NCBI GenBank assembly: GCA_964363955.1
Contig: CAYIKG010000001.1
Coordinates: forward strand, 1-39,002
Length of the DNA: 39,002 bases
Direction of reading: 5' to 3'
Source: an uncultured archaeon
GTDB taxonomy: Archaea; Aenigmatarchaeota; Aenigmatarchaeia; GW2011-AR5
Shown: in pieces, positions 1-12,153 of the stretch
Layout: every line of letters begins with the position of its first letter
Position numbering within the stretch: the stretch's first letter is position 1
Position numbers and translations under genes: made by a program
Notes under the pieces: model-generated
What the model was told of the DNA's origin: nothing
What the model saw: the letters and a program-made list of their open reading frames with translations, nothing else
Database searches by the model: none

Positions 1-1106
1 GTTTTGTTATTGATGGGTACGCAGACAATGCAAAAATTGATTGGGCTTCAGTGGAAGAGGCAGCAGAAACACTGACAAGATTCCTTGACGCAGTTGTCAT
101 CTGGAATGAACTTCTGAATCCACTGGAAAAGCAGAGAAAAGCAGCTTCTGAGACACGAAGATTGGGCATTGGCGTCATGGGCATTGCAGACATGCTGAAC
201 CAATTGGGGATAAGCTATGACAGTGACGAAGCTATAGAATTATGCGAAAAAATAGCCAAGAAAATTGCTAATGCAACTTACAGGGCATCAGCAGAACTTG
301 CAGAAGAAAAAGGACCTTCGCCTATATTTGAATACGAGGCGTACAGCAGGTGCCCATTCTTCAGGGAAGCACTGGACATAGAAACAAAAGAGCTGATACG
401 CAAGAAAGGCTTGAGAAACATTGCAATACTTTCTATTGCACCGACAGGGACGATAAGCAGCGTTGTGCTTGGCTATAAAAATGGCAACAAAAATTACATA
501 GGGGTGTCTGGCGGCGTAGAGCCGGTCTTTGCATTGTTTTATACCCGACGCTCTGAAAGTTTTGGCAACAGGACATTCAAGATATTCCATTCGACTGTGG
601 CTGCGTACATTGACAAGTATGGCCTTATGGAAAAAGCGCAGGAGAGTAATGAAGAAGAACTGAGAAAAATATTGCCAAAACATTTTTTCCGGACAGCACA
701 TTATATCGAGCCAGAACAACGTGTGCGCATACAAGGCATGTGGCAAAGATACATTGACCATTCTATCTCAAGCACGGTCAATTTGCCAGAAGACATAGAT
801 CCTGAGACAATAAGCAATATTTACATGAATGCGTGGAAACACGGCTTGAAAGGTATAACAATATATCGAGCTGGATCGAGGTATCCTATACTGAGCACAG
901 AAAGTGAGCGCAATGAATTCCATCAATACAAAGAAAAGCAGTTCGAAGTCCATATAAACGGGACAAGTGCACTGATGCACGCTGACAATTTCATAACAAT
1001 GCCAAATGGGACACTAACAACGGTCTATCATGCAATAAAAGATGGTACATTAAAAATAGAAGAAGGGGAAAGAGAAATAATTAAAGCCGTAGCGGAATTG
1101 CAATAA
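1..1106 (+). CDS. nrdJ: Class II (adenosylcobalamin-dependent) ribonucleotide reductase paralog, C-terminal part; the 5' end lies upstream of the window
   Basis: Frame 3 is open from nt 3. RRLGIGVMGIADML, ILSIAPTGTISS, GVSGGVEPVFA, STVNLPED and GLKGITIYRAGSR are colinear with the complete NrdJ at 2694-4796. It ends at TAA 1104-1106 with no C-terminal Cys pair. Confidence 0.9.
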   Translation, partial: FVIDGYADNAKIDWASVEEAAETLTRFLDAVVIWNELLNPLEKQRKAASETRRLGIGVMGIADMLNQLGISYDSDEAIELCEKIAKKIANATYRASAELAEEKGPSPIFEYEAYSRCPFFREALDIETKELIRKKGLRNIAILSIAPTGTISSVVLGYKNGNKNYIGVSGGVEPVFALFYTRRSESFGNRTFKIFHSTVAAYIDKYGLMEKAQESNEEELRKILPKHFFRTAHYIEPEQRVRIQGMWQRYIDHSISSTVNLPEDIDPETISNIYMNAWKHGLKGITIYRAGSRYPILSTESERNEFHQYKEKQFEVHINGTSALMHADNFITMPNGTLTTVYHAIKDGTLKIEEGEREIIKAVAELQ

Positions 1107-1120
1107 AACAAATATTTTTG

Positions 1121-1291
1121 TTAGTTTCTGGATAGTTTAATTTTATCAATTGGATATTCGGTAATAACGTCTATAGCATCTGGATAGATTTCTGGGATGC
1201 ATCGAGTTACTTGTTGAAGGTATTCTGGTAATGTGTAGCCTTCTTTCATTTTTCCATCTTTTGTTAAAATATATATTGTAAGAGGTCTCAT
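1121..1291 (-). CDS. Hypothetical 56-aa protein (MRPLTIYILTKDGKMKEGYTLPEYLQQVTRCIPEIYPDAIDVITEYPIDKIKLSRN)
   Basis: Hand-translated ATG-to-TAA ORF, below the ORF-track length cutoff. The palindromic TATA-like ATTTAAAT (1314-1321) lies about 25 nt upstream of its ATG. No family recognised. Confidence 0.35.
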   Translation of the reverse strand: MRPLTIYILTKDGKMKEGYTLPEYLQQVTRCIPEIYPDAIDVITEYPIDKIKLSRN

Positions 1292-1313
1292 GAAAATCGG
1301 ATGTTTTCAATGT

Positions 1314-1321
1314 ATTTAAAT
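1314..1321. promoter_or_regulatory. Palindromic TATA-like box ATTTAAAT, candidate bidirectional promoter
   Basis: It reads identically on both strands. Its centre is about 26 nt from the minus-strand ATG at 1291 and about 25 nt from the plus-strand ATG at 1343, the spacing expected for leaderless archaeal transcripts. Confidence 0.4.
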
Positions 1322-1342
1322 GAAATAGAAGTAAGTGAGATC

Positions 1343-1465
1343 ATGGAAAATTCTGAATCCCAGATGCTGGCGCAGTGTCCGGCATGCGGACAGCGCACGC
1401 TCAAGAGCGAAGCTGGCTGCCACGAATGCATCAATGCTGACTGCGGCTACGGTGTTTGCGATTGA
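1343..1465 (+). CDS. Stand-alone 40-aa Cys-rich zinc-finger peptide resembling the C-terminal Cys-rich tail of class II RNRs
   Basis: Hand-translated MENSESQMLAQCPACGQRTLKSEAGCHECINADCGYGVCD*. Cys spacing is CX2C-X10-CX2C-X4-C-X4-C. In-frame alternative ATGs at 1301 and 1310. It lies 236 nt downstream of the RNR body stop, in a different frame. Confidence 0.55.
   Translation: MENSESQMLAQCPACGQRTLKSEAGCHECINADCGYGVCD
1415..1465 (+). repeat. Direct repeat copy A: intact 3' end of the RNR-tail mini-ORF
   Basis: ggctgccacgaatgcatcaatgctgactgcggctacggtgtttgcgattga. It shares a perfect 19-mer ggctacggtgtttgcgatt (1445-1463) with copy B. Confidence 0.85.
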
Positions 1466-1499
1466 GGAATTTGTTTTAAAATTATTAATTGTGAGTCTA

Positions 1500-1919
1500 A
1501 TGAATATAATGAAAATAGATTACGATGATGAAGCAAAATTATCACCTGATGGACGTATAGATAATCCGAGATTTATGCAAATTAACATAAACGTAGATCC
1601 TTCTATGACGTCTCCTATACGTGAAAAGGGGACGTCTGACGTATATTTTATAACACTACATGGACCACTTTCACTAGCTGATCTAATGAGACTTTCTGAC
1701 TATGCTAAAGGGCGCGGTGCTGAAAATGCCAGACCTTTGTCTGTTCATTCGAGAACTTATTATATGGAAGGTTCTGGCAAAGCTCCTGTAATGTACGGTA
1801 TCATGAGATCTGTGCCTGAAGATCCTAATGATATAAATTGTGTTGATCTATACGGTGGGGAAAGATTTGTCAAAAGATTTTTCCCATCCAAAACTGAAGT
1901 CTTGCATCTAATACCGTAG
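1500..1919 (+). CDS. Hypothetical 139-aa protein (ORFan) between the two RNR-tail repeat copies
   Basis: ATG 1500 is preceded by the A/T-rich TATA-like ttttaaaattatta (1474-1487). Uninterrupted ORF ending at TAG 1917-1919. No motif recognised. The ORF-track start at 1335 overlaps the zinc-finger ORF and is unlikely. Confidence 0.6.
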   Translation: MNIMKIDYDDEAKLSPDGRIDNPRFMQININVDPSMTSPIREKGTSDVYFITLHGPLSLADLMRLSDYAKGRGAENARPLSVHSRTYYMEGSGKAPVMYGIMRSVPEDPNDINCVDLYGGERFVKRFFPSKTEVLHLIP

Positions 1920-1969
1920 CGGTGTCACAAGTGCATCAATCTTGAATTGGCTACGGTGTTTGCGATTAA
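1919..1969 (+). pseudogene. Direct repeat copy B: degenerate relic of an RNR Cys-rich tail 3' end
   Basis: gcggtgtcacaagtgcatcaatcttgaattggctacggtgtttgcgattaa aligns codon by codon with 1415-1465 (GCHKCINLEL-GYGVCD*). One Cys codon is lost (TGC to TTG) and there is a 1-nt deletion. Perfect 19-mer at 1949-1967. Confidence 0.7.
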
Positions 1970-2643
1970 TTCTTGATTCTCTTCTGAACAGCATCGCTTT
2001 GCAGCTCCTTCAATGCATCATTGGCAATCCATTTAGCGCTTTTTGAATCAATTTTTTGTATTTCCTTCGCAGTCTTTATTGACTTTTTCTGCAATCTTGC
2101 ATTTCTCTTTCCTATTTGCCGCAATGCCCAGTTTACTGCTTTTTTCACGTATAACCTTTCATCTGTTGCCTCTCGCTTTATTATTGGAAGAAATTTCTCC
2201 AATTTTCTGTCAGAAATTGTTCGGTCGTTCCACGCATAATATGCCATCAGCGCAAAAGCAGTGCGTTTGACGAATTCTTCTTTTCTTTTACTGTATTCAA
2301 AACATTTCTTATATGCATAAGGTGTTTTTCTAAAAACATTGTTACAAGAAAGATCGACAATGTCCCAGGAACTGCTTTCTGCTGCCCATTTTTCCATATT
2401 TCTTTCGCTGAATTTTTCTGGCTCCTCAACAATGCCAGCGAGTATGCGCGCTTCGTGGGCGCCAGAATCCCAAAGCTGCTGCGCGAGTTCGTGGTTTTTG
2501 CCGATTTTTCTTGCATATTTTCTTAGCTTTGTAACAGATATGCCAAATGCTTTTTCTGTATTTATGCCAAACCTGGCCATGCCTTCGCGATCTCTTTGAT
2601 TGCCCATGGCTTTCAGTTCTTTCATGATTCTCTGGTATTGCAT
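1966..2643 (-). CDS. DNA alkylation repair protein (AlkD-like HEAT-repeat family)
   Basis: 225 aa. FGI..TKLRKYARKIGKNHELAQQLWDSGAHEARILAG...WDIVD...WALRQIGKRN matches the DNA_alkylation family pattern and its typical length. Confidence 0.8.
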   Translation of the reverse strand: MQYQRIMKELKAMGNQRDREGMARFGINTEKAFGISVTKLRKYARKIGKNHELAQQLWDSGAHEARILAGIVEEPEKFSERNMEKWAAESSSWDIVDLSCNNVFRKTPYAYKKCFEYSKRKEEFVKRTAFALMAYYAWNDRTISDRKLEKFLPIIKREATDERLYVKKAVNWALRQIGKRNARLQKKSIKTAKEIQKIDSKSAKWIANDALKELQSDAVQKRIKN

Positions 2644-2664
2644 TAAGAGACTGATTCAATATCC

Positions 2665-2672
2665 TTTAAAAA
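2665..2672. promoter_or_regulatory. TATA-like box tttaaaaa in the 50-nt divergent alkD/nrdJ gap
   Basis: Its centre is about 26 nt upstream of the nrdJ ATG at 2694. No SD motif lies between, consistent with a leaderless transcript. Confidence 0.4.
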
Positions 2673-2693
2673 TCCTTCTGCAATTATTTTATT

Positions 2694-4796
2694 ATGCTTA
2701 CGCAGATAAGAAAACGCGATGGAAGGATTGTGAAATTCCGGAAAGAAAAGATAGCAGCAGCGATACTCAAAGCAGTAGAAGCTAGTGGCGAAAGTGATGA
2801 GAAATTGTCCAATGAAATTGCAGAAAAGGTAATAAAAGAATTTGAGCACAAAGGCAAAAAGTTCATTCCGAGTATTGAGCAAATACAAGACACCATCGAG
2901 AAGGTGCTTGTAGACGAAGGTCATGCAAAAATAGCTAAGGCGTATATTCTTTATCGCCAGAAACGCGCTGAAATACGCGAGGCAAAAGCCATTATAGGCA
3001 TCAAGGATGATTTGAAGCTCAGTATAAATGCTGTAAAGGTTCTTGAGCGCCGTTATCTTCGCCGTGACGAGAACGGCAAGGTCGTTGAAACACCTTCTGG
3101 CATGTTCAGGCGTGTGGCAAAAGCCATTGCACAGGCTGATCTGCTTTACGGCAGCGAAGAAGATGTAAAAAAAAGTGAGAAGGAATTTTATGACATTATG
3201 AGCAGCCTGGAATTTCTTCCAAATTCGCCTTGCCTGATGAACGCAGGTCTGCACGACAATCAGTTGGCTGCGTGTTTTGTCCTTCCTGTCGAAGATTCGA
3301 TGAAAGGTATTTTTGAGACATTGAAGCATGCTTCCTTGATCCATATGACTGGCGGCGGTACGGGTTTCAGCTTTAGCAAGATCAGACCTCGCGGCGATAT
3401 TGTCCATTCTTCAGGCGGAATGGCATCAGGTCCTATGAGCTTTATCCGTGTTTACAATGCAGCGACTGAAGCAACAAAAGAAGGCGGACGTCGGCGCGGC
3501 GCAAACATGGGCATTCTTCGCGTAGACCACCCAGACATCATTGAATTCATAATTTCAAAGGAAAAGGATACATCATTGGCCAATTTCAACCTGAGCGTGG
3601 CGCTAACAGACGAGTTCATGCACAAGGTCGAGGCAGATGAAGATTATAATCTGACAAATCCGCGTACAGACGAGATGGCAAACCGCCTGAACGCGCGGCG
3701 TGTCTTTGATCTGATCGTGACAATGGCATGGAAATGCGGTGATCCTGGAATAATTTTCATCGACCGCATAAATAACAGCAACTCAAACCCGACGCCGGCA
3801 ATAGGGCGCATAGAAGCAACAAACCCTTGCGGCGAAGCTCCATTGCTGCCATACGAATCGTGCATACTTGGCAGCATAAATCTTTCTAAAATGTTAGAGG
3901 ACAAGAAAATTGATATAGACTGGAATAAATTGCGAAAGACTGTTCACATGGCTGTTCATTTTCTTGACAATGTAATTGACGCGAACAAATACCTGCTCAA
4001 AGAAATAGGTAATGTAACAAAAGCGAACAGGAAGATAGGCCTTGGCGTCATGGGATTTGCTGATATGCTGATCAAGCTTAGTATTCCCTATAACTCTGAG
4101 GAAGCGGTAAAGATAGCAGATCGTCTTATGCACTTCATCAACGAGGAGGCAAAAAAAGCTAGTGTAGAGCTTGCGAAGCAACGCGGATCATTTCCCAATT
4201 TTGAGCGCAGCATATGGCCGGGAAAAGGCTACAAGATGCTTAGAAATGCGACAACAACTACCATTGCGCCGACAGGGACGATAAGCATCGTCGCTGATTG
4301 CAGCAGCGGCATCGAGCCATTGTACGCTGTGTCTTACATACGCACTATTATGGATACTACAGATCTCATAGAAGTAAACAAGCAGTTTGAGGCAGTCGCG
4401 CACGAACATGATTTTTACAATGAAACCCTTATGCGCATTATTGCCAGAAAGGGGTCAGTACAAGACATAAAAGAAATACCTGATGAGATCAAGAAGCTAT
4501 TTGTTACAACACATGATATTGCTCCAGAATGGCATGTTCTTGTGCAGGCAGCTTTTCAAAGGCATACAGACAATGGTGTTTCAAAAACAGTTAATTTCCC
4601 GCACGAAGCTTCACTTGAGGATGTGGAAAAGACATACGTGCTTGCTTACAGACTTGGCTGCAAGGGAATTACCATATATCGCGATCGCAGCAAGGAAGAG
4701 CAGGTATTGCATACCCAATTGCTTGCAAAGAAAACAAAGTCAGAGGAATTTGACGAGCGTTTGCTCGAGTTAACACAAGCCTGCAAAACATGTTAG
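2694..4796 (+). CDS. nrdJ: Class II (adenosylcobalamin-dependent) ribonucleotide reductase with N-terminal ATP-cone
   Basis: 700 aa. ATP-cone start (IRKRDGRIVKFRKEKI), NPCGE active-site loop, TIAPTGTIS, GCKGITIYRDRS, and a terminal ACKTC Cys pair. Confidence 0.95.
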   Translation: MLTQIRKRDGRIVKFRKEKIAAAILKAVEASGESDEKLSNEIAEKVIKEFEHKGKKFIPSIEQIQDTIEKVLVDEGHAKIAKAYILYRQKRAEIREAKAIIGIKDDLKLSINAVKVLERRYLRRDENGKVVETPSGMFRRVAKAIAQADLLYGSEEDVKKSEKEFYDIMSSLEFLPNSPCLMNAGLHDNQLAACFVLPVEDSMKGIFETLKHASLIHMTGGGTGFSFSKIRPRGDIVHSSGGMASGPMSFIRVYNAATEATKEGGRRRGANMGILRVDHPDIIEFIISKEKDTSLANFNLSVALTDEFMHKVEADEDYNLTNPRTDEMANRLNARRVFDLIVTMAWKCGDPGIIFIDRINNSNSNPTPAIGRIEATNPCGEAPLLPYESCILGSINLSKMLEDKKIDIDWNKLRKTVHMAVHFLDNVIDANKYLLKEIGNVTKANRKIGLGVMGFADMLIKLSIPYNSEEAVKIADRLMHFINEEAKKASVELAKQRGSFPNFERSIWPGKGYKMLRNATTTTIAPTGTISIVADCSSGIEPLYAVSYIRTIMDTTDLIEVNKQFEAVAHEHDFYNETLMRIIARKGSVQDIKEIPDEIKKLFVTTHDIAPEWHVLVQAAFQRHTDNGVSKTVNFPHEASLEDVEKTYVLAYRLGCKGITIYRDRSKEEQVLHTQLLAKKTKSEEFDERLLELTQACKTC

Positions 4797-4806
4797 ATGG
4801 TTTTTT

Positions 4807-5415
4807 ATGCGAACTAAAGATAAGTCAGCCCCGCCGATAAAGAATGAGCTTGGCCTAATACATGTTTACACAGGCAGCGGAAAAGGCAAGACAACGGCAA
4901 GCCTTGGTCTGGCTATGCGCGCTGTTGGCCATGGCTTCAAGGTTTATGTCATTCAGTTTATGAAAGGTGGCCGTTTTGTCGGTGAATTACTTGCTGCTGA
5001 AAAATATCTGAAAGGCAAAATAAAGTTCGCGCAGTTCGGCCAGTCCACACCGTTCGAAGAAGAAATCAAAAAAGGTGAATTAAAGCCAAGCGTTGATATT
5101 TTCCTGCCTTTTGAGAATGAGAGCGAGCAGATGTATAAGGCCTTGCATTTTGCGCACAAGATAATAAAATCGAGAAAATATAACCTGGTAATACTTGATG
5201 AAATAAATGTTGCTATGAACATGGGTCACATAAAGCCAGAACACGTCCTGCAATTGATGCTTGCAAAGCCGAAGAATATAGAACTAGTACTTACAGGCCG
5301 CAACGCGCCACCTGAGATAATCGACGCGGCAGATTATGTAAATGAAATAAAGCCAGTAAAGCACCCGTTTGACAAAAAGAAAAAGATAATTGGCCGTCGT
5401 GGAATCGAATATTAA
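4807..5415 (+). CDS. cobO: Cob(I)alamin / cob(I)yrinic acid a,c-diamide adenosyltransferase (CobA/CobO/BtuR family)
   Basis: GLIHVYTGSGKGKTTASLGLAMRAVGHGFKVYVIQFMKG plus LDEIN is the signature of the family. It starts 10 nt after the nrdJ stop. Confidence 0.9.
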   Translation: MRTKDKSAPPIKNELGLIHVYTGSGKGKTTASLGLAMRAVGHGFKVYVIQFMKGGRFVGELLAAEKYLKGKIKFAQFGQSTPFEEEIKKGELKPSVDIFLPFENESEQMYKALHFAHKIIKSRKYNLVILDEINVAMNMGHIKPEHVLQLMLAKPKNIELVLTGRNAPPEIIDAADYVNEIKPVKHPFDKKKKIIGRRGIEY

Positions 5416-5439
5416 AACTTTTCTTAATCAGATGTCTAT

Positions 5440-5640
5440 ATGGAAAATAAAACATGTCCAGTTTGTCATAAAGTTATGTACCCGAAGGAGGTAAAGGGAA
5501 TACATATTGACATATGCGACCAGCATGGCGTATTTCTTGATAAAGGAGAGCTCCAGCATCTTGCAGATGAATTCAAGAAAGAGGGCTTTGGCCAGGGTTT
5601 TTCATCGAGTTTGCGCACTCTGTGGAGAACAGACGTATAA
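5440..5640 (+). CDS. Small zinc-ribbon protein (zf-TFIIB-like, CPxC...ID.C...G.FLDKGEL pattern)
   Basis: 66 aa, CPVCHKVMYPKEVKGIHIDICDQHGVFLDKGELQHL. Confidence 0.6.
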   Translation: MENKTCPVCHKVMYPKEVKGIHIDICDQHGVFLDKGELQHLADEFKKEGFGQGFSSSLRTLWRTDV

Positions 5641-5659
5641 GAAATGATTAACTAAAAGA

Positions 5660-5950
5660 ATGAAAAGTAAAAGAATGATTATGCATATACAACACGAGGA
5701 TGATAAGTTCTTTGTCGTTATAGATGGCATCAGAGCTGAATTAATTTACAACGTATACGAAGACAAAATGGACATATTCCACGTGTTCACGCCGCCAGAA
5801 TTGCGCGGCCGCGGCATCGCAGAGCAGCTTGCTTTAGCTGCGTTTGAGCGTGCCAGGGAACAGAAGTTAAAAGTTATTCCTAACTGCTCTTATATAAAAG
5901 ATACGTTTTTGAGCAAGCATCCTGAATTTAAAGATATTGTAGAAGATTGA
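5660..5950 (+). CDS. GNAT-like small acetyltransferase-fold protein (YjdJ/NATD1-type)
   Basis: 96 aa. FTPPELRGRGIAEQLALAAFERAREQKLKVIPNCSYI...KHPEF matches the Acetyltransf_CG-type pattern. Confidence 0.7.
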   Translation: MKSKRMIMHIQHEDDKFFVVIDGIRAELIYNVYEDKMDIFHVFTPPELRGRGIAEQLALAAFERAREQKLKVIPNCSYIKDTFLSKHPEFKDIVED

Positions 5951-5964
5951 ATTATTGTGATATT

Positions 5965-6264
5965 ATGCCTTTGAAAGATGACGTCATGAATGAGCTGAAA
6001 ACAGTCAATGATCCAGAGCTGGGCGTCAACATAGTTGATCTTGGTCTTGTATACGAAGTTGAAGAAAGATCAGAAAAAGACGTATTCATAAAATTAACGC
6101 TGACATCGCCTGCGTGCCCGCTCGGGCCCCAGATAATAGATGAGATAAAGCAGAAGCTTAGTGCCATAGGCCTTACAGCAGAAATAGAAATAACGTTCAA
6201 CCCGCCTTGGGGGCCTGACATGATGAGCGAGGATGCGAAGTTTGAATTAGGTATTATGGGTTAG
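5965..6264 (+). CDS. DUF59/MIP18-family Fe-S cluster assembly protein (SufT/PaaD-like)
   Basis: VNDPELGVNIVDLGLVYEV...LTLTSPACPLGPQIIDEIK. ATG 5965 is preferred; the ORF-track TTG start at 5947 is the alternative. Confidence 0.8.
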   Translation: MPLKDDVMNELKTVNDPELGVNIVDLGLVYEVEERSEKDVFIKLTLTSPACPLGPQIIDEIKQKLSAIGLTAEIEITFNPPWGPDMMSEDAKFELGIMG

Positions 6265-6561
6265 TCATTTTATCGAATATACAGTATAATTTCCATAGTG
6301 CATAGAATATTGGACACGGCACCCAACTGATTTAACGCCTTTTCTTACTGCATTGTCTAATTTTTCAGCGTGCGGGTCGTACACAATCACTTCAGCAACA
6401 AAATATGGCGCACTGCCAATTCTCATGAAAAGAGGGTATTCCAGGTTTCGGTGCAGAAACATAGCAGAATGATCTGTTGGCCATATAACACAATCTTTAT
6501 ACTGCTTTGGTAATTTTTTCTGAATAGATTGTTCGAGATCATTTATCCTATTTTCACCCAT
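6265..6561 (-). CDS. Hypothetical 98-aa protein
   Basis: Clean ORF, convergent with the DUF59 gene with zero spacing. No family recognised. Confidence 0.5.
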   Translation of the reverse strand: MGENRINDLEQSIQKKLPKQYKDCVIWPTDHSAMFLHRNLEYPLFMRIGSAPYFVAEVIVYDPHAEKLDNAVRKGVKSVGCRVQYSMHYGNYTVYSIK

Positions 6562-6582
6562 ATCATATACTCTGTCTGGATA

Positions 6583-6591
6583 TTTTTATAT
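6583..6591 (+). promoter_or_regulatory. TATA-like box tttttatat upstream of the aminotransferase gene
   Basis: Its centre is 25 nt upstream of ATG 6612, with no SD motif. Confidence 0.4.
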
Positions 6592-6611
6592 CACGCACGC
6601 AAATACTTATC

Positions 6612-7751
6612 ATGCACATATCAGAGCGAGAGAAAGAGCTTCCGGACGCAGTGATCGGCGAGCTGATAAAGTTGGCTGCTGAAAAGAGGGGCATTGTTTC
6701 TCTTGGCCACGGTGAGCCGGATTTTGACCTGCCGAAGCCACTGCAAGCTTATGCGAAAAAGATTGCTGGAAAATACAACCATTATGCTCCACCCGGTGGG
6801 GTAAAGGAATTAAGAGAGGGTATTGCTAAAAAATTAAGAAAAGATAACAAAATCCGTGCTGACCCTGAAAACGTAGTAGTCACGTGCGGCTCGCAGGAGG
6901 CGCTCATGCTGGCTGTCGCGTGCTCGTGCGACGTTAGCGAGCAGATAATCATCCCGAACCCGAGCTTTCTTGGCTACCTTCCAACATTGGAATTACTCGA
7001 TGCTTTCCCAGTATTTCTAGAATTAAAGGAAGAAGATAAATGGCAAATAAACCCGGATATTTTAAAAAAATTAATTGACAAGAAAAAAACAACAGCAATA
7101 CTCATAAATACGCCGGCCAATCCAACAGGCACTGTGCTTGACAAAAAGATTTTAGAGGAAATAGCCGACATAGCAGTGGAGCATGACCTTTATGTGTTCA
7201 GCGACGAAGCATACGAGAAAATAATTTATGAAAAAAAGCACACGTCCATTGGCAGCTTTAATGGCATGGAAGATTATGTTGTAACGTTCCAGACATTCTC
7301 GAAGAGCTATGCAATGGCTGGCTATCGCTTAGGCTACGCAGCTGCACCGCCGAAGCTGGCGCAAGCGATTACAAAGACGCACGTATACTCGACGATCTGC
7401 GCGCCTACGTTCTCGCAGATGCTCGGCATAAAGGCACTTTCATTGCCAAAGAAATATATTACAAAGATGGTCGGCGAATACAAAAAAAGAAGAGATTATA
7501 TCCATAAACAGCTGAATGAAATAGGCCTGCGTACAATAAAGCCAGAAGGTGCCTTCTACGCGTTTTCAAATATTGGCAAGAAAAACAGCCAGAAATTCGC
7601 GAAGCAATTGCTCGCAAAAGCTCATGTTGCTGTAGTACCTGGCAGCGAGTTCGGAAGCCACGGCGAATCATTCATCAGATGCTCTTATGCAACAGGACTC
7701 GATAAAATAAAGATTGCTTTGAATAAAATGGAGAAATTCCTAAAGCATTAA
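6612..7751 (+). CDS. Class I/II PLP-dependent aminotransferase (aspartate aminotransferase-like)
   Basis: 379 aa. INTPANPTG, SDEAYEK, and SFSKSYAMAGYRLGY (PLP lysine). Confidence 0.9.
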   Translation: MHISEREKELPDAVIGELIKLAAEKRGIVSLGHGEPDFDLPKPLQAYAKKIAGKYNHYAPPGGVKELREGIAKKLRKDNKIRADPENVVVTCGSQEALMLAVACSCDVSEQIIIPNPSFLGYLPTLELLDAFPVFLELKEEDKWQINPDILKKLIDKKKTTAILINTPANPTGTVLDKKILEEIADIAVEHDLYVFSDEAYEKIIYEKKHTSIGSFNGMEDYVVTFQTFSKSYAMAGYRLGYAAAPPKLAQAITKTHVYSTICAPTFSQMLGIKALSLPKKYITKMVGEYKKRRDYIHKQLNEIGLRTIKPEGAFYAFSNIGKKNSQKFAKQLLAKAHVAVVPGSEFGSHGESFIRCSYATGLDKIKIALNKMEKFLKH

Positions 7752-8269
7752 TGTTTTTCTGCAATTCTATATACATGGTTACAGCTTTATCAAATGCAGA
7801 AACTGAAAGTCAACTAAGGCAATTGCACCAAGATTTTGGTAACTCTCCGTTTCGTTCAAGAAACAATGAAATTTTTGATCGTCTTTCTGAATTAGGTTAT
7901 TTGACTCGTGCACCATTGGGATCTAATCCACATGATCCAGTTGAATATAGATTAAAACCTGATGTAATTGAATCAATCTCTTCGAACTTCAGATGGGAAG
8001 AAAGGCCTTATACTTATGCAGGGCCTACTAATAGACGCCAAAGTTTATTTGAGCCATATAAACTAGAATTTGTTTCCTTGTTTTCAGGTAATGTTTTTAC
8101 TTATATGGAATTTTCTCAATTTCTTGATTATAAGGGAATAGAAATGCCTAATCCTGCATCATTTCTATCCGAATTGTTCGGTGGCGGTTTTTTAAAAAGA
8201 CGGCGCCTTTATGTAAACGGTAACAGTAGATACGAATACGTGATTATCGAAAAGGCTTTTGGTGGTTGA
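7751..8269 (+). CDS. Hypothetical 172-aa protein, possibly two winged-helix-like halves
   Basis: Its ATG overlaps the aminotransferase TAA (taATG), and its TGA is followed directly by the lplB ATG. IFDRLSELGYLTR...EYRL and FLSELFGGGFLKRR...YEYVI look winged-helix-like, which is weak evidence. Confidence 0.55.
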   Translation: MFFCNSIYMVTALSNAETESQLRQLHQDFGNSPFRSRNNEIFDRLSELGYLTRAPLGSNPHDPVEYRLKPDVIESISSNFRWEERPYTYAGPTNRRQSLFEPYKLEFVSLFSGNVFTYMEFSQFLDYKGIEMPNPASFLSELFGGGFLKRRRLYVNGNSRYEYVIIEKAFGG

Positions 8270-8551
8270 ATGCACGGTGTCGCAACTGAGAAAGTGCCCA
8301 GCGGCAAGCTTTTGCGCGTCAAAGTCGATTATGACGATATTATTAGACACGTTTCTATTACAGGCGATTTCTTCCTTCATCCAGAAGAGGGCATAGAAAA
8401 AATAGAATCAGCGTTGTTTGGATTGAACGCAAATGATGGCGAAGAAAAAATAACAAGCATCATCAAAGAAGTTATTGAAGAAAACAATATAGAGCTTATC
8501 GGCGTCGATGCAGAAGCAATTGCAAGAAATATCAAAGCGGCGATGAAATGA
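8270..8551 (+). CDS. lplB: Lipoate-protein ligase accessory (C-terminal domain) subunit
   Basis: 93 aa. GKLLRVKVDYDD..I..VSITGDFFLHPEE is typical of the separate C-terminal-domain subunit found in Thermoplasma-type split ligases. It overlaps lplA by 4 nt. Confidence 0.75.
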   Translation: MHGVATEKVPSGKLLRVKVDYDDIIRHVSITGDFFLHPEEGIEKIESALFGLNANDGEEKITSIIKEVIEENNIELIGVDAEAIARNIKAAMK

Positions 8552-9291
8552 ACTGGCGTGTGATTCCATTAGCAGCAAATGATGCGTTCATGAATATGGC
8601 TATAGACGAAGCTGTCACTGAAAGTGTTGCTGAAGGCTCTGCGCCAACTATAAGATTTTTCAGGTGGCTGCCATCTGCAGTGAGCATCGGGTATTTCCAA
8701 GGCCTTCGCGATGAAGTGGATGTTGAAAGATGCGGCGAGCTTGGCATTCACATAGTGCGCCGCCGCACTGGCGGAGGAGCTGTATATCATGATTACGATG
8801 GCGAGATAACTTACAGTATTATAGCTCCAGAAAACATGTTCCCGCACGGCATCAGGGAGTCTTACAATGTAATATGCGAATTGATAATAAGAAGCCTGAA
8901 GCATTTAGGCATCGAAAGCGAGTTCAAGCCAATAAATGACATAATCACGAGTGGCAAGAAAATCTCTGGCAATGCGCAGACAAGAAGGAATGGTATCCTG
9001 CTGCAGCACGGCACCATACTTTATGATCTTGATGTGCGAAAGATGTTCTCTCTGCTGAAAGTAGGCCAGGAAAAAATATCAGATAAACTGATACAAGCTG
9101 TTGAAGACCGCGTTACGTGCGTGAAAAAGCTGAAAGAAACGAGCATGGATGAACTATACCAAGCGCTTGTCAAAGGATTTACAGAAGACAAAGACCACAC
9201 GTTCGAACAACTTACAGATACTGAGCTAAATCGTGCAAAAGAATTGGCAGAAGAAAAGTATTCAAGAGAGGAATGGAATTTTATGCGGTGA
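8548..9291 (+). CDS. lplA: Lipoate-protein ligase A, catalytic subunit
   Basis: NMAIDEAV, TIRFFRW.PSAVSIGYFQ, RRRTGGGAVYHD, GKKISGNAQTRR, LLQHGTILYD. Confidence 0.9.
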   Translation: MNWRVIPLAANDAFMNMAIDEAVTESVAEGSAPTIRFFRWLPSAVSIGYFQGLRDEVDVERCGELGIHIVRRRTGGGAVYHDYDGEITYSIIAPENMFPHGIRESYNVICELIIRSLKHLGIESEFKPINDIITSGKKISGNAQTRRNGILLQHGTILYDLDVRKMFSLLKVGQEKISDKLIQAVEDRVTCVKKLKETSMDELYQALVKGFTEDKDHTFEQLTDTELNRAKELAEEKYSREEWNFMR

Positions 9292-9331
9292 GTTTCTCTG
9301 CAACTACGTCCCTTTCATTAATAAATTCAAT

Positions 9332-9343
9332 ATGAAAACGCCT
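9332..9343 (+). repeat. 12-nt direct repeat atgaaaacgcct: orphan copy of the cobW-like start codon region
   Basis: Identical to 9888-9899, the first four codons (MKTP) of the CobW-family gene. Here it opens only a 10-codon ORF, MKTPGCAAAR*. Confidence 0.7.
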
Positions 9344-9349
9344 GGCTGT

Positions 9350-9417
9350 GCTGCAGCACGGTAGAAGAGCTCGTAGAAGAAAAGTACTCAAAGAAGAATG
9401 GAATTTACAGGGTCTGA
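9350..9417 (+). pseudogene. Fragmentary relic of a second, diverged lplA
   Basis: gctgcagcacgg (9350-9361) is identical to lplA 9000-9011 (LQHG). 9364-9417 (gaagagctcgtagaagaaaagtactcaaagaagaatggaattt...tga) aligns with the lplA 3' end at 9241-9291 (ELAEEKYSREEWNF) with one indel. Confidence 0.5.
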
Positions 9418-9770
9418 CCGCCGTATGACGGAGACCTACGTCTTCGCCCTAGTACAGGTTCTCCTGGTTCTTCTATTTGCATAAAACAGTGCGGCTCTAA
9501 AAAGCCGTGCTCGGCAAAATATCGCTTGAGCAAAGCTGCTTCATCTCGCGATACTGTGCATATTTCAACAACACGATCACGACTGCCATTTTCAGGCTTT
9601 ACGTCTCCTACATATCCGGCTGCAAAACTTCCTCTATCCAGGCTTGTTTTTGGATTATATTCGCCAACAAGATAAAGTTTACCGCCAAGATAGATTATTT
9701 CCGGAGGCCTACTATATTCGCCAAGATCTCCGCTAATGTCTGGCTTTGGGAATCTGAAAGATACTGCCAC
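9405..9770 (-). CDS. Hypothetical 121-aa protein (ORFan)
   Basis: Clean ORF whose 3' end overlaps the lplA relic. There is an A/T-rich stretch about 25 nt upstream of its ATG. No family recognised. Confidence 0.5.
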   Translation of the reverse strand: MAVSFRFPKPDISGDLGEYSRPPEIIYLGGKLYLVGEYNPKTSLDRGSFAAGYVGDVKPENGSRDRVVEICTVSRDEAALLKRYFAEHGFLEPHCFMQIEEPGEPVLGRRRRSPSYGGQTL

Positions 9771-9858
9771 ATTGATTTATTTACTGTAAAGCTAATAAAA
9801 CTCTGTTCCAGGACTGCCAGAAAATAAATTATATATATACTGATATTTCTTGCATGAC

Positions 9859-9865
9859 TATAAAA
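9859..9865 (+). promoter_or_regulatory. TATA-like box tataaaa upstream of the CobW-family gene
   Basis: Its centre is about 26 nt upstream of ATG 9888. Confidence 0.4.
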
Positions 9866-9887
9866 CGTCTCTGCATAATAGTCGTAC

Positions 9888-10748
9888 ATGAAAACGCCTA
9901 TAACTATAATTACTGGCTATCTTGGCAGCGGGAAGACATCGTTGATAAGGCATATCCTTGACAACGCTGACAGGCGATTTGCAGTAGTCATGAACGAATT
10001 CGGCGAGCTCGGTATAGACGGCAAAACCATCAAGGGAAAAAATATCGACATAATCGAGCTTTCTGGCGGCTGCGTCTGCTGCTCCATGAGCGGAGAATTT
10101 GCACAGGCAGTGGATGAGATCGTGGCCTTGCAGCCTGACCATATAATAATCGAAACAACAGGCGTTGTCGATCCAGAAGCTCTCATCTACGATGTCCTTG
10201 AAAACATGCCACAGTTAAAATTAGACAGCGTTGTGTGCGTTGTCGATTCATACGCTGCAGCGAATTACGGCATTGGCCATACGGCACGTAGCCAAATCGA
10301 GATGGCGGACATATTGCTCGTTAACAAAGCCGATCTCATAGACAAAGACAAGATTCTAGAAATTCAAGAGCAATTAGAAAAAATAAACTCGACAGCAGCA
10401 AAAATACGCACCATAAAATGCAGGACAGAACCTGGCCTGATTTTCGGCATGTACACAGAAAAAATTGCGAAACACGGAAAACATGATACAGAAGACGTGA
10501 AAACATTTGTTTTTGCAACTGAAAGAAAAACAGATAAAGTGAAGTTTGAAAATTTCCTGCGTGAAATGAAAGGAGTTGTTCGTGCAAAGGGCTTCGTTGT
10601 CTTAGAGGACAGTTCTTATTTATTCAACTACGTGAACGGCAGGTTTGATTTCGAGAAATTTCCTGCTGAAAAGACCGAGCTTGTATTTATCGGGGAGAAA
10701 TTTGATAAGGAGAAGTTAGAAAAAGACCTAGAAAGCTTATTCAGCTAA
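9888..10748 (+). CDS. CobW/COG0523-family metallochaperone GTPase
   Basis: ITGYLGSGKTSLI (P-loop), GCVCCS metal motif, IIIETTG, LVNKADL. Confidence 0.9.
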   Translation: MKTPITIITGYLGSGKTSLIRHILDNADRRFAVVMNEFGELGIDGKTIKGKNIDIIELSGGCVCCSMSGEFAQAVDEIVALQPDHIIIETTGVVDPEALIYDVLENMPQLKLDSVVCVVDSYAAANYGIGHTARSQIEMADILLVNKADLIDKDKILEIQEQLEKINSTAAKIRTIKCRTEPGLIFGMYTEKIAKHGKHDTEDVKTFVFATERKTDKVKFENFLREMKGVVRAKGFVVLEDSSYLFNYVNGRFDFEKFPAEKTELVFIGEKFDKEKLEKDLESLFS

Positions 10749-11978
10749 AAGCAGTTCTGTATTCTCAAGATACATTATTATTTTGTTTACAAATCTCGCT
10801 GCTTCTGCGCCATCGACAATCCTGTGGTCAAAGCTCAATGACAGCGGCAGGACTTTTCTGGTTCGCGGAATCCCGGCTTTCATAACCACTTTATCTCTTA
10901 CCCTTCCTGTTGCGAGTATTGCGGCCTCTGGTGGGTTTATTATAGGTGTTGCATGAATGCCGCCTATGACACCGACATTCGTTATCGTGAACGTTCCTCC
11001 TTTCAAATCAGCTAGATCAATTTTCCTCTCTTGGGCCCTCCGAGCCAAAGACTCTATTTCCCTTGCTAGTGCATAGATGTCTTTCTGGTCAGCGCCCTTG
11101 ATAACAGGCACGATCAAGCCATCAGGTGTGTCTACAGCAATGCCAATGTTGTAATATTTTTTCAGTATTATCTCTTCATGCTCATCGTCGAGCATTGCAT
11201 TCATGTATGGATGAGCCTGCAATGCCTTTACAACAGCTCTGATGGCATATGGAAGGTATGTAATGTGTATTCCTTTTTCTAATGCCTTTCTTTTTTCCTC
11301 ATTCCTTATTTTATACAATTCAGTCACATCTGCCTCGTCCATATGCGTTACGTGCGGCGCTGTGTAGAATGATTTTGACATGTTTTTTGCTATTGCCTTA
11401 CGCACACCTTTTAGTGGCACGTGTTCGATGTAGCCGTACACATCGTATTTTTTTGTTATTTTTATGGTTGGTGCTTCTTCTTTAGATTCTTCTTGCTTCA
11501 ATGATTGTGCGTATTTTCTCACGTCTTCTTCAGTTATGCGGTTATCACTGCCCGTGCCCTTTACCTGAAATAAATCAACATTAAGTTCACGGGCAAGGCG
11601 CCGTGTTGCAGGTGTTGCGAGTACTTGCGGCTCTTGCCTTTCTATTGCTTTTTTCATCAGAGGCTTTTCAACGTCTGCTGCCTCCTCAAGGTAGCCGACA
11701 GCTCCGGCTGGCTTTACTTCAGGTGTTTTTTCTGTAATTTCTCCAGTATCAATAATAACTAAAACTTCTCCTACCTTTACAGTATCGCCTTCTTTGTGAA
11801 AGATCTTAGAAATCGTGCCGCTCTTCGGAGAAGGCATTTCAACTATGGCTTTGTCTGTCTCGATTTCTGCAAGTATATCATGCTCCTTAACAGCACTACC
11901 TTCCTTAACGTGCCACTTTACTATTTCGCCTTCGGTTATACCTTCGCCAACATCAGGGAATTTAAACTCATAAGCCAT
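10737..11978 (-). CDS. Dihydrolipoamide acyltransferase (E2) of a 2-oxoacid dehydrogenase complex
   Basis: Lipoyl domain (AEIETDKAIVEMPSP), E1/E3-binding domain (ATPATRRLARELNVDL), and catalytic domain with DHRIVDG. Confidence 0.95.
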   Translation of the reverse strand: MAYEFKFPDVGEGITEGEIVKWHVKEGSAVKEHDILAEIETDKAIVEMPSPKSGTISKIFHKEGDTVKVGEVLVIIDTGEITEKTPEVKPAGAVGYLEEAADVEKPLMKKAIERQEPQVLATPATRRLARELNVDLFQVKGTGSDNRITEEDVRKYAQSLKQEESKEEAPTIKITKKYDVYGYIEHVPLKGVRKAIAKNMSKSFYTAPHVTHMDEADVTELYKIRNEEKRKALEKGIHITYLPYAIRAVVKALQAHPYMNAMLDDEHEEIILKKYYNIGIAVDTPDGLIVPVIKGADQKDIYALAREIESLARRAQERKIDLADLKGGTFTITNVGVIGGIHATPIINPPEAAILATGRVRDKVVMKAGIPRTRKVLPLSLSFDHRIVDGAEAARFVNKIIMYLENTELLLAE

Positions 11979-12153
11979 GTAAAAAGTTGTTAAAGATGGT
12001 TTAAAAATCTATTTTGATTTGATCTCCTTCAGGAATTCCTCTATATCTTTCTCTAATTCCTTCTCATCAATATTTATTTTGTATTTCTCAGCTAACCGAA
12101 GCGCAAAAACAAACAGAAGCATCTTCCTGTCATTTATTTTCAGAAACAGTATT

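Follow-up and report, generated by a model that had tools for sequence, protein, structure and literature searches.

Possible Gene-Insertion Scar at the 3′ End of a Ribonucleotide Reductase Tail Gene in an Aenigmatarchaeota Genome

Introduction

Islets that are flanked by attachment (att) sites but contain no recombination genes, termed cis-mobilizable elements (CIMEs), have been described for the integrative and conjugative elements (ICEs) of streptococci. In Thaumarchaeota, 14 of 68 integrated elements occupy the 3′-distal part of protein-coding genes and supply them with a new stop codon; one of these targets is a gene for a Zn-finger protein (PMC6563490, 2019). Among bacteria, a fraction of the short, strain-specific genome segments is accompanied by short direct repeats, and illegitimate or short-homology recombination has been named as their source (Touzain et al. 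2010, PMC2884548). The genomes of DPANN archaea are tiny and gene-dense, and the routes by which they acquire genes are little known. The present analysis concerns a unit of 504 bp in a DPANN genome, in which a single gene lies between the intact 3′ end of a mini-gene for the tail of ribonucleotide reductase (RNR) and a degenerate copy of that same end. The unit resides in the first 39 kb of contig C1 (the entire stretch of DNA analyzed, hereafter the window) of the metagenome-assembled genome (MAG) G000, which comprises 710 kb (0.71 Mb) on 72 contigs and is ~80% complete.

The records of its relatives give the group name as Candidatus Aenigmatarchaeota (DPANN archaea), and a public contig that is identical to positions 498–2853 of the window originates from Hainich groundwater well H51. 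The principal comparators were G001, a sister species within the same genus that shares 73–76% genome-wide nucleotide identity with G000, and G005, a member of the same family with the strain variant L105. The gene end in question is duplicated and unevenly conserved, the gene between the copies (the cargo) has a foreign composition and belongs to a real protein family, the arrangement recurs with other cargo in G001, and sister units are found elsewhere in the same MAG, one of them with an empty site in the sister species.

Results

Duplicated End of the RNR Tail Gene

The class II RNR at the beginning of the window (RNR1) ends without a Cys-rich tail; this tail is encoded by a separate mini-gene (Table 1), preceded ~27 nt 5′ of its ATG (1343) by a TATA-like TTTAAAT that, as read in the sequence, would serve as its promoter. 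A separate tail open reading frame (ORF) 3′ of RNR1 is also present in G001 and G005; a gene of ~40 aa is found in three Aenigmatarchaeota genomes. The same Cys motif closes an open frame of 200–265 aa in most other DPANN archaea and in some bacteria (Calditrichota); these longer frames look like candidate second subunits of a split RNR.

The 19-mer GGCTACGGTGTTTGCGATT occurs exactly at both core positions listed in Table 1 and nowhere else in the window, with up to two mismatches allowed; no match was obtained in 100 shuffles, and a uniform-composition estimate gives ~0.01 expected exact local repeats of at least 19 nt within 4 kb for the entire 710-kb MAG. An initial reading of this DNA, made from the sequence alone and hereafter called the sequence-only reading, had reported the 19-bp repeat correctly and had described the surrounding homology as an alignment of ~51 nt with one deletion; the homology is real, but local alignment extends it to 56 nt in the proximal and 53 nt in the distal copy, with seven substitutions and three 1-nt gaps. 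All 10 differences fall into the left 37 of the 56 alignment columns (P = 0.0098 for avoiding the last 19), and the right 19 nt would remain unchanged under the divergence rate of the left arm with P = 0.0025. Since the orthologs differ from each other at synonymous sites, the identity of the 19-mers is not explained by protein conservation; the codons for GYG[VI]CD read GGC TAC GGT GTT TGC GAT in G000, GGG TAC GGG ATT TGT GAT in G001, and GGG TAC GGC GTG TGC GAC in G005.

The distal copy is a dead relic, just as it had been characterized: a Cys codon has shrunk to "TT" and the frame is broken, and its TAA (1967–1969) overlaps the stop of the convergent alkD gene (the reverse complement of 1966–1968) within the sequence TTAA. 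Compared to four relatives, the differences between the two copies reflect mostly decay in the relic. At the single informative site, the relic has CTT, one change away from the Pro codon of all relatives, versus GCT (Ala) in the intact copy, which hints that it is the intact end that was derived or imported; the 19-mer, perfect beside a heavily decayed arm, suits a crossover core at least as well. For this unit, the proposal that the element brings a replacement end has the hint from this one site in its favor.

The arrangement was recovered repeatedly. A separately assembled contig in the European Nucleotide Archive (ENA), the Hainich contig mentioned above, is 100% identical over the whole unit, and a Logan contig (run ERR3858114) is 100% identical across positions 929–1899, which include the proximal junction; the proximal junction thus appears in three independent assemblies and the whole unit in two. 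The coverage of the ENA contig is low (3.6x, a figure taken from its record name).

Table 1. Positions of the duplicated segments, the cargo gene, neighboring genes, and the second unit within the window.
Feature	Positions	Strand	Evidence or remark
Class II ribonucleotide reductase (RNR1), C-terminal part, truncated by contig start	3..1106	+	Pfam Ribonuc_red_lgC, E = 3e-56
Lineage-specific 56-aa ORF in the spacer between RNR1 and tail	1121..1291	-	G+C content at third codon positions (GC3) 0.21
RNR zinc-ribbon/redox tail, separate 40-aa mini-gene (ORF open from 1301), insertion target	1343..1465	+	CX2C-X10-CX2C-X4-C-X4-C
Proximal (functional) copy of the duplicated segment	1408..1463	+	local alignment
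19-bp perfect core, copy 1	1445..1463	+	exact match
A/T box ttttaaaattatta (TTTTAAAATTATTA), likely archaeal TATA element of the cargo gene	1474..1487	+	sequence; putative function
Cargo, 139-aa protein of a very rare archaeal family	1500..1919	+	three full-length homologs
Distal relic of the tail 3′ end	1915..1967	+	three 1-nt deletions; Cys34 codon lost
19-bp perfect core, copy 2	1949..1967	+	exact match
alkD-like gene for DNA alkylation repair, convergent with the tail	1966..2643	-	Pfam DNA_alkylation, E = 4e-33; GC3 0.39
Second unit: 12-nt copy of the cobW start, ATGAAAACGCCT, 40 nt past the lplA stop	9332..9343	+	sequence comparison
Second unit: two fused, diverged lplA relic pieces, like internal 8994-9012 and 3′ end 9239-9291	9345..9417	+	
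Second unit: 121-aa ORF, no known family	9405..9770	-	GC3 0.32
Second unit: real cobW start, second copy of the 12-mer	9888..9899	+	

The Cargo Gene

The A/T box and the 139-aa ORF between the copies are present as originally described, and the TAG of the ORF (1917–1919) sits within the first bases of the relic. An analogous box, GTTTTAAATA, is found 3′ of the tail stop in G001. Judging from the starts of its homologs and the spacing to the TATA element, the cargo gene probably starts at ATG 1509 and yields a leaderless transcript. The ORF had been assigned to no recognizable family; this holds for Pfam, NCBIfam, PHROGs, and PADLOC, where it has no matches and where no known toxin, antitoxin, or defense family was found, but an exhaustive HMMER search against 1.84 billion representatives retrieved three distant full-length homologs with 31–45% identity. 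They have the motifs LxGPLS, YYxEG, EDPxxIDxVDLYxG, and FPGET in common, and since three homologs keep these motifs clearly, the cargo is a genuine gene rather than an ORF that arose by chance. When the cargo protein and a profile were used in a word-indexed search, the same four proteins came back and no further ones. The homologs are encoded on ordinary archaeal chromosome, each in a different neighborhood: a ribosomal protein/NusA cluster, an aCPSF1/proteasome locus, and an alanyl-tRNA synthetase (AlaRS) region. Beside one of these homologs (P0002; L049 5170–5631), a 20-nt repeat (95% identical, 442-bp spacing) brackets an 85-aa ORF.

The GC3 of the cargo gene is 0.257, compared to a genome mean of 0.41, and ranks among the lowest 1.8% of 139-codon windows of long ORFs; the GC3 of alkD and of the RNR genes is typical of the genome. 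AlphaFold2 models of the cargo protein reached a predicted local distance difference test (pLDDT) score of 37 from the single sequence and of 59 from the four-member alignment, and Foldseek comparison of the cargo model to the PDB returned no fold match (best E = 1.3). No further copies of the cargo ORF were found in the MAG, including the vicinity of other duplicated gene ends, where the sequence-only reading had suggested looking for them, and none were found in 60 relatives.

The Same Site in Related Genomes

In G001 (contig C41; L032), the tail gene (4879–5010) is followed after 39 nt by two genes, for a 171-aa winged helix-turn-helix nucleotidyltransferase and its 142-aa HEPN-like partner, which correspond to the PADLOC candidate defense pair PDC-M05A/B. 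Directly past this cargo, at 5993–6035, lies a 43-nt copy of the tail end that aligns without gaps at 86% identity and has kept the reading frame (ECMNPECGYGVCD versus ECMNPECGYGICD, each followed by a stop). Five of the six differences between these copies are at third codon positions (P = 0.018), and the stop of the copy overlaps the stop of a convergent, PolB-exonuclease-like ORF of 207 aa. This ORF and the other genes 3′ of the tail unit in G001, for a Zn-ribbon protein of 89 aa and a 61-aa ORF, look element-like. Neither the cargo nor the flanking genes of G001 are present in G000. The convergent overlap of stop codons in both species may be plain genome compaction rather than a cassette boundary.

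No relic was found within ~9 kb of sequence downstream of the tail in G005 and its strain variants (L105), or within 250–450 nt downstream in L114/L115 and L116, which are short contigs; the genes downstream of the tail in these relatives are not alkD. An ancient tandem duplication carried by all relatives, an alternative that the sequence-only reading had named, is not borne out: G000 and G001 have different cargo and different right flanks, and the other relatives show no relic within the stretches given above. In two Woese-/Nanoarchaeota-like DPANN genomes, L103 (8210–8319) and L104 (7246–7366), the tail gene is accompanied by its own tail-end relic pieces, which are 95–96% identical and located 80–230 nt downstream without any intervening ORF; the related L099 has no tail-like pieces. 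The patterns in G000, G001, L103, and L104 indicate that the end of the tail gene is a site of repeated rearrangement.

Other Units in the Same MAG

The MAG was screened for local direct repeats to find further units. A unit on contig C2 (G000:C2:18240-19424; L117 1741-2925) consists of a gene with a YbaK-like editing domain, a gene for a 221-aa S-adenosylmethionine (SAM) methyltransferase (its ATG and the YbaK stop share bases in GAATGAA), a relic, and the gene for threonyl-tRNA synthetase (ThrRS). The relic comprises 24 codons of the YbaK end, in frame, and closes with a 16-bp perfect core, GATGTGAGCGAATGAA; its stop is overlapped by the ThrRS ATG. The corresponding empty site is preserved in G001 (contig C28), where the YbaK stop overlaps the ThrRS start and the methyltransferase is absent. 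Relative to the YbaK end in G001, the relic is 92% and the intact copy 77% identical; the intact end was either imported together with the cargo, or has evolved faster once it was released from its role as ThrRS promoter.

On contig C4 (G000:C4:9717-10233; L057 1718-2234), the last 23 bp at the 3′ end of a tRNA gene are repeated exactly at 494-bp spacing, and between the copies lie a ParE/RelE-like gene of 88 aa (ParE_toxin match) and a 57-aa partner. This unit is common to G000 and G001 (contig C143) at 76% identity, and is old for this reason. Its repeat copies co-vary by species, with GAGATG in both copies of G000 and GAGAAG in both copies of G001. The tRNA itself (L057 2213–2395, minus strand) is seemingly interrupted by multiple introns, with an acceptor GCCGGGG...CTCCGGCA and a CAT-like anticodon region; ARAGORN and Rfam both miss it.

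The second unit that had been noticed within the window, at 9332–9899, is real but more complex than first described: the relic precedes the ORF, and it is the start of cobW that is duplicated (Table 1). Assembled orthologs of lplA and cobW were not found in G001, and in G005 the two genes are located on different contigs. Elsewhere in the MAG, a 41-nt promoter-like repeat (93% identical) surrounds a 1.25-kb two-gene segment past a thermosome-like gene (C6, 9548–10842), and a 34-nt repeat (97% identical) surrounds a divergent pair of small ORFs in 0.75 kb (C18, 9134–9913); both are possibly further units of the same kind. The repeat cores measure 19, 23, and 16 nt, and the repeated segments range from 16 to 72 nt across the units. 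The core claim of the sequence-only reading, an insertion at a gene 3′ end with duplication of that end, is thus matched by the same site with other cargo in G001 and by further units in the MAG.

Comparison With Mobile-Element Anatomy

Direct repeats of the att type enclose the insert, with a 19-bp core in a 56/53-nt segment, and one of them overlaps the 3′ end of the target gene. The terminal inverted repeats of a transposon or casposon were not convincing (the best pairing of ends was weak, 12/15), and the length of the duplication is not fixed. With regard to integrons, no PF00589 integrase was found in the MAG and no attC-like element was recognized, although attC was examined indirectly only. 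The order that is characteristic of displacement – an intact gene, new DNA, and the orphaned old 3′ end – is present in the window unit, in G001, and in the C2 unit. An 8-bp stem formed across the relic by ACCGTAGC and GCTACGGT was rejected as a candidate structure; it lies within chance expectation and is not conserved in G001. Rfam yielded no RNA match within window positions 1–12000 or at the C4 locus.

Neighboring Genes

RNR1 is 81% identical to its ortholog in G001 and 76% to that in G005 (amino acids). The G001 ortholog (L032 1557–4751) contains an intein (CVAGDS...VVHNC), located ~25 residues upstream of the first position of the G000 contig; heterogeneity in the presence or absence of this intein may have caused the contig break inside RNR1. 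The 56-aa ORF in the spacer between RNR1 and the tail has no family match in Pfam, NCBIfam, PHROGs, or PADLOC, and its exact protein is limited to contigs of the same population; the spacers of G001 and G005 are shorter, unrelated, and without this ORF. This ORF may be a small insertion as well; repeats flanking it were not seen. A complete second class II RNR, ending in ...ACKTC and only 30% identical to RNR1, is encoded at window positions 2694–5415, and a BtuR/CobO-type corrinoid adenosyltransferase gene starts 10 nt after it; in G005, a PduO-type adenosyltransferase is found instead, a few genes past the tail. A tail-like mini-protein of 39 aa (P0009, ...CHECLNIECGYGVCD) is encoded at L109 6001–6120, within a glycosyltransferase/epimerase cluster where it overlaps the end of the epimerase gene, with no RNR nearby.

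Discussion

Origin of the Unit

The unit could well be, at somewhat short of an even chance, a scar of horizontal gene insertion that was left by a single reciprocal crossover of the Campbell type, similar to integration at att sites. Such a crossover would join the chromosomal 3′ end of the tail mini-gene to a tail-like segment on incoming DNA that otherwise would carry a promoter and one gene only; it would fall in or beside the 19 bp in which the two copies now agree exactly. The product would be an intact tail gene, now ending in TGA, followed by the cargo with its own TATA box and by a partial copy of the tail end that borders on alkD, the former neighbor; this second copy would be functionless and would decay. 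At the empty site before insertion, the intact tail would have been joined directly to ...GCGATTAATTCTTG. Since the unit encodes no recombinase, the exchange would be the work of host homologous recombination on short homology, or of an integrase supplied in trans. A perfect core with diverged arms is the anatomy of attL and attR; the circular intermediate, the crossover position, and the enzyme are inferred.

Several observations weigh against this scenario. The tiny unit, whose sole ORF of 139 aa matches no family, encodes no recombinase, as the sequence-only reading had observed; PF00589, PF00239, TnpB, and Cas1 were not found anywhere in the 80%-complete MAG. A free or viral attP resembling the tail, or a free or viral version of the cargo, was found neither in IMG/VR, scanned for the tail and for the cargo family, nor among JGI metagenome contigs, scanned with a tail profile and a degenerate DNA pattern of the tail end. 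The left arm of the relic carries three frameshifts, and an attP arm derived from a working tail would require later decay. The empty tail-to-alkD site that relatives might have preserved, and that the sequence-only reading had proposed to look for, was found in no relative examined; exact-protein look-ups place this alkD beside the tail in this population only, and the alkD orthologs of relatives are just 48–57% identical and located elsewhere. The lengths of the repeated segments vary among units to an extent that disfavors one dedicated enzyme. Finally, the C2 relic equals G001 at 12 of the 14 sites where the two copies differ, and is for this reason the ancestral-like copy; a crossover at the right-hand core predicts the opposite polarity, and the C2 unit therefore is better suited to displacement of the 3′ end.

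Displacement, through homology-facilitated illegitimate recombination, is the somewhat unlikely, yet serious, competitor for the tail site. A linear fragment from a related archaeon, containing RNR1/tail followed by the cargo ORF, would have been anchored by homology in RNR1 or in the tail, and its far end would have been joined illegitimately within the resident tail; the intact end would then be the imported and the relic the resident one. The two models disagree on exactly this point, the identity of the native copy, and on the involvement of a circle. The native-like C2 relic, the Pro-like codon of the window relic opposite an Ala codon in the intact copy, and the third-position bias in G001, as if both ends had evolved as working genes in different lineages, all accord with displacement, and the same model has been proposed for Rhs, contact-dependent inhibition (CDI), and type VI secretion system (T6SS) loci with orphaned 3′ ends (PMC5361080). 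Yet, barring later gene conversion, it does not account for a perfect 19-mer beside an arm that is frameshifted and 27% diverged, and it demands that in each of two species an illegitimate joint formed within ~14 nt of one common position on the tail. In addition, the identity of RNR1 to its G001 ortholog is ordinary, with no breakpoint visible in the part of RNR1 that is on the contig, and the C2 polarity could have arisen from a relic that was held constant as ThrRS promoter. A larger source is also conceivable, if clearly on the unlikely side: a provirus or plasmid with its own integrase that used the tail 3′ end as attB and was whittled down by streamlining until one gene, or one addictive or defensive pair, remained. 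Direct repeats that overlap the 3′ end of a protein gene, and of a tRNA gene in the same genome, represent classical att anatomy (PMC6563490); G001 and C4 have toxin-antitoxin or defense cargo; tyrosine recombinases occur in 22 of 36 relatives, G001 (C8) and G005 (C2:55208) among them; and the C4 unit, shared between two species at 76% identity, suggests that such islets are long-lived. Integrase fragments, other pseudogenes, and spare DNA are, however, absent from all units; each unit instead has its promoter ~35–45 nt past the proximal copy and a cargo stop that touches the distal copy, and the smallest cryptic integrated element in the published survey still measures 2.6 kb and retains its integrase (PMC6563490).

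The remaining alternatives require no import. Slippage could have produced a tandem duplication of the tail end around an ORF that was resident or arose de novo, and the relics without ORF in L103 and L104 demonstrate that small local duplications do occur at this site; but a tandem duplication places no unrelated DNA between its copies, full-length cargo homologs in distant archaea speak against de novo origin, the GC3 of the cargo is atypical for the genome, and in G001 this place is taken by another cargo, all of which renders a local event highly improbable. Still more remote is an assembly artifact in which two strains were chimerically joined at the repeat. The source is a MAG, the ENA contig has low coverage, and the contig begins inside RNR1; these circumstances invite suspicion, but the separate ENA and Logan assemblies are identical across the unit and at its proximal junction, respectively, and the unrelated assembly of G001 has the same architecture. 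The usual assemblers, moreover, work with a k-1 overlap that exceeds the 19 bp of the repeat.

A more general version of the single-crossover reading would have ultra-small DPANN genomes gain genes through recombinase-free "homing-arm" cassettes; this extension is speculative, and we consider it unlikely on present evidence. A promoter with one gene, or with a toxin-antitoxin or defense pair, would travel together with a short 3′-end copy of a conserved host gene or gene junction, and one host-mediated crossover would insert it; through the duplicated junction, and in a genome that has no intergenic DNA to spare, neither neighbor would lose its coding end, stop, promoter, or start. Such cassettes would land recurrently at the separate mini-gene for the RNR tail, and the co-variation of the C4 repeats would result from ongoing excision and re-integration, or from gene conversion.

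Implications for Gene Gain in Small Genomes

The finding is real and part of a pattern, and it provides a concrete picture of small-scale gene gain in DPANN genomes. The tail locus and its sister units share a repeatable anatomy, in which a gene or gene pair is gained at a gene end or junction, a short stretch is duplicated, and the neighbors stay functional. In two species of one genus, the same mini-gene has been hit with unrelated cargo, which suggests that this landing site is preferred or, alternatively, that the compactness of the genome acts as a selection filter. If host recombination on short homology is responsible, it would be a simple and general route by which defense genes spread among uncultured archaea, and recent acquisitions could be recognized in MAGs by a practical signature, the relic of a gene end next to a small, compositionally atypical ORF. 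If the units are merely decayed islets made by integrases, their value is mainly descriptive.

Comparison With Known Systems

The locus combines known kinds of arrangement, att-flanked islets and 3′-end displacement, and does not call for a new category. With the integrated elements of archaea (PMC6563490), the unit shares flanking direct repeats of which one is the end of a still-intact target gene, and a new stop on the element side (here TGA for the old TAA); tRNA 3′ ends are also used in G000. Unlike these elements, it contains no integrase or any other mobile-element gene, it measures 0.5 kb compared to at least 2.6 kb, and the arms beside its core are themselves homologous to the target. 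The short strain-specific segments of bacteria (Touzain et al. 2010) differ from the present units, where the repeats are gene ends or junctions that keep both neighbors intact and the segments are whole genes.

Single-gene units of 0.5–1 kb with ORFan, toxin-antitoxin, or defense cargo are typical of integron cassettes and resemble the units described here; in contrast to integrons, IntI was not found in the MAG, duplicated host gene ends form the repeats, and every cassette brings a promoter of its own. CIMEs are similar in having att-like repeats on both sides, no recombinase, and small cargo; they differ from this unit, which has an archaeal host and a tail site for which no cognate element or integrase is known, and whose mobility is hypothetical. 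The C-terminal displacement of Rhs, CDI, and T6SS loci (PMC5361080) offers the same order of segments, reuse of the site with different cargo in related genomes, and independence from a dedicated recombinase; there the parallel ends, since the C-terminus of the tail is conserved rather than polymorphic, its cargo is no immunity gene paired with a variable toxin tip, and the unit resides in an archaeal genome of ultra-small size.

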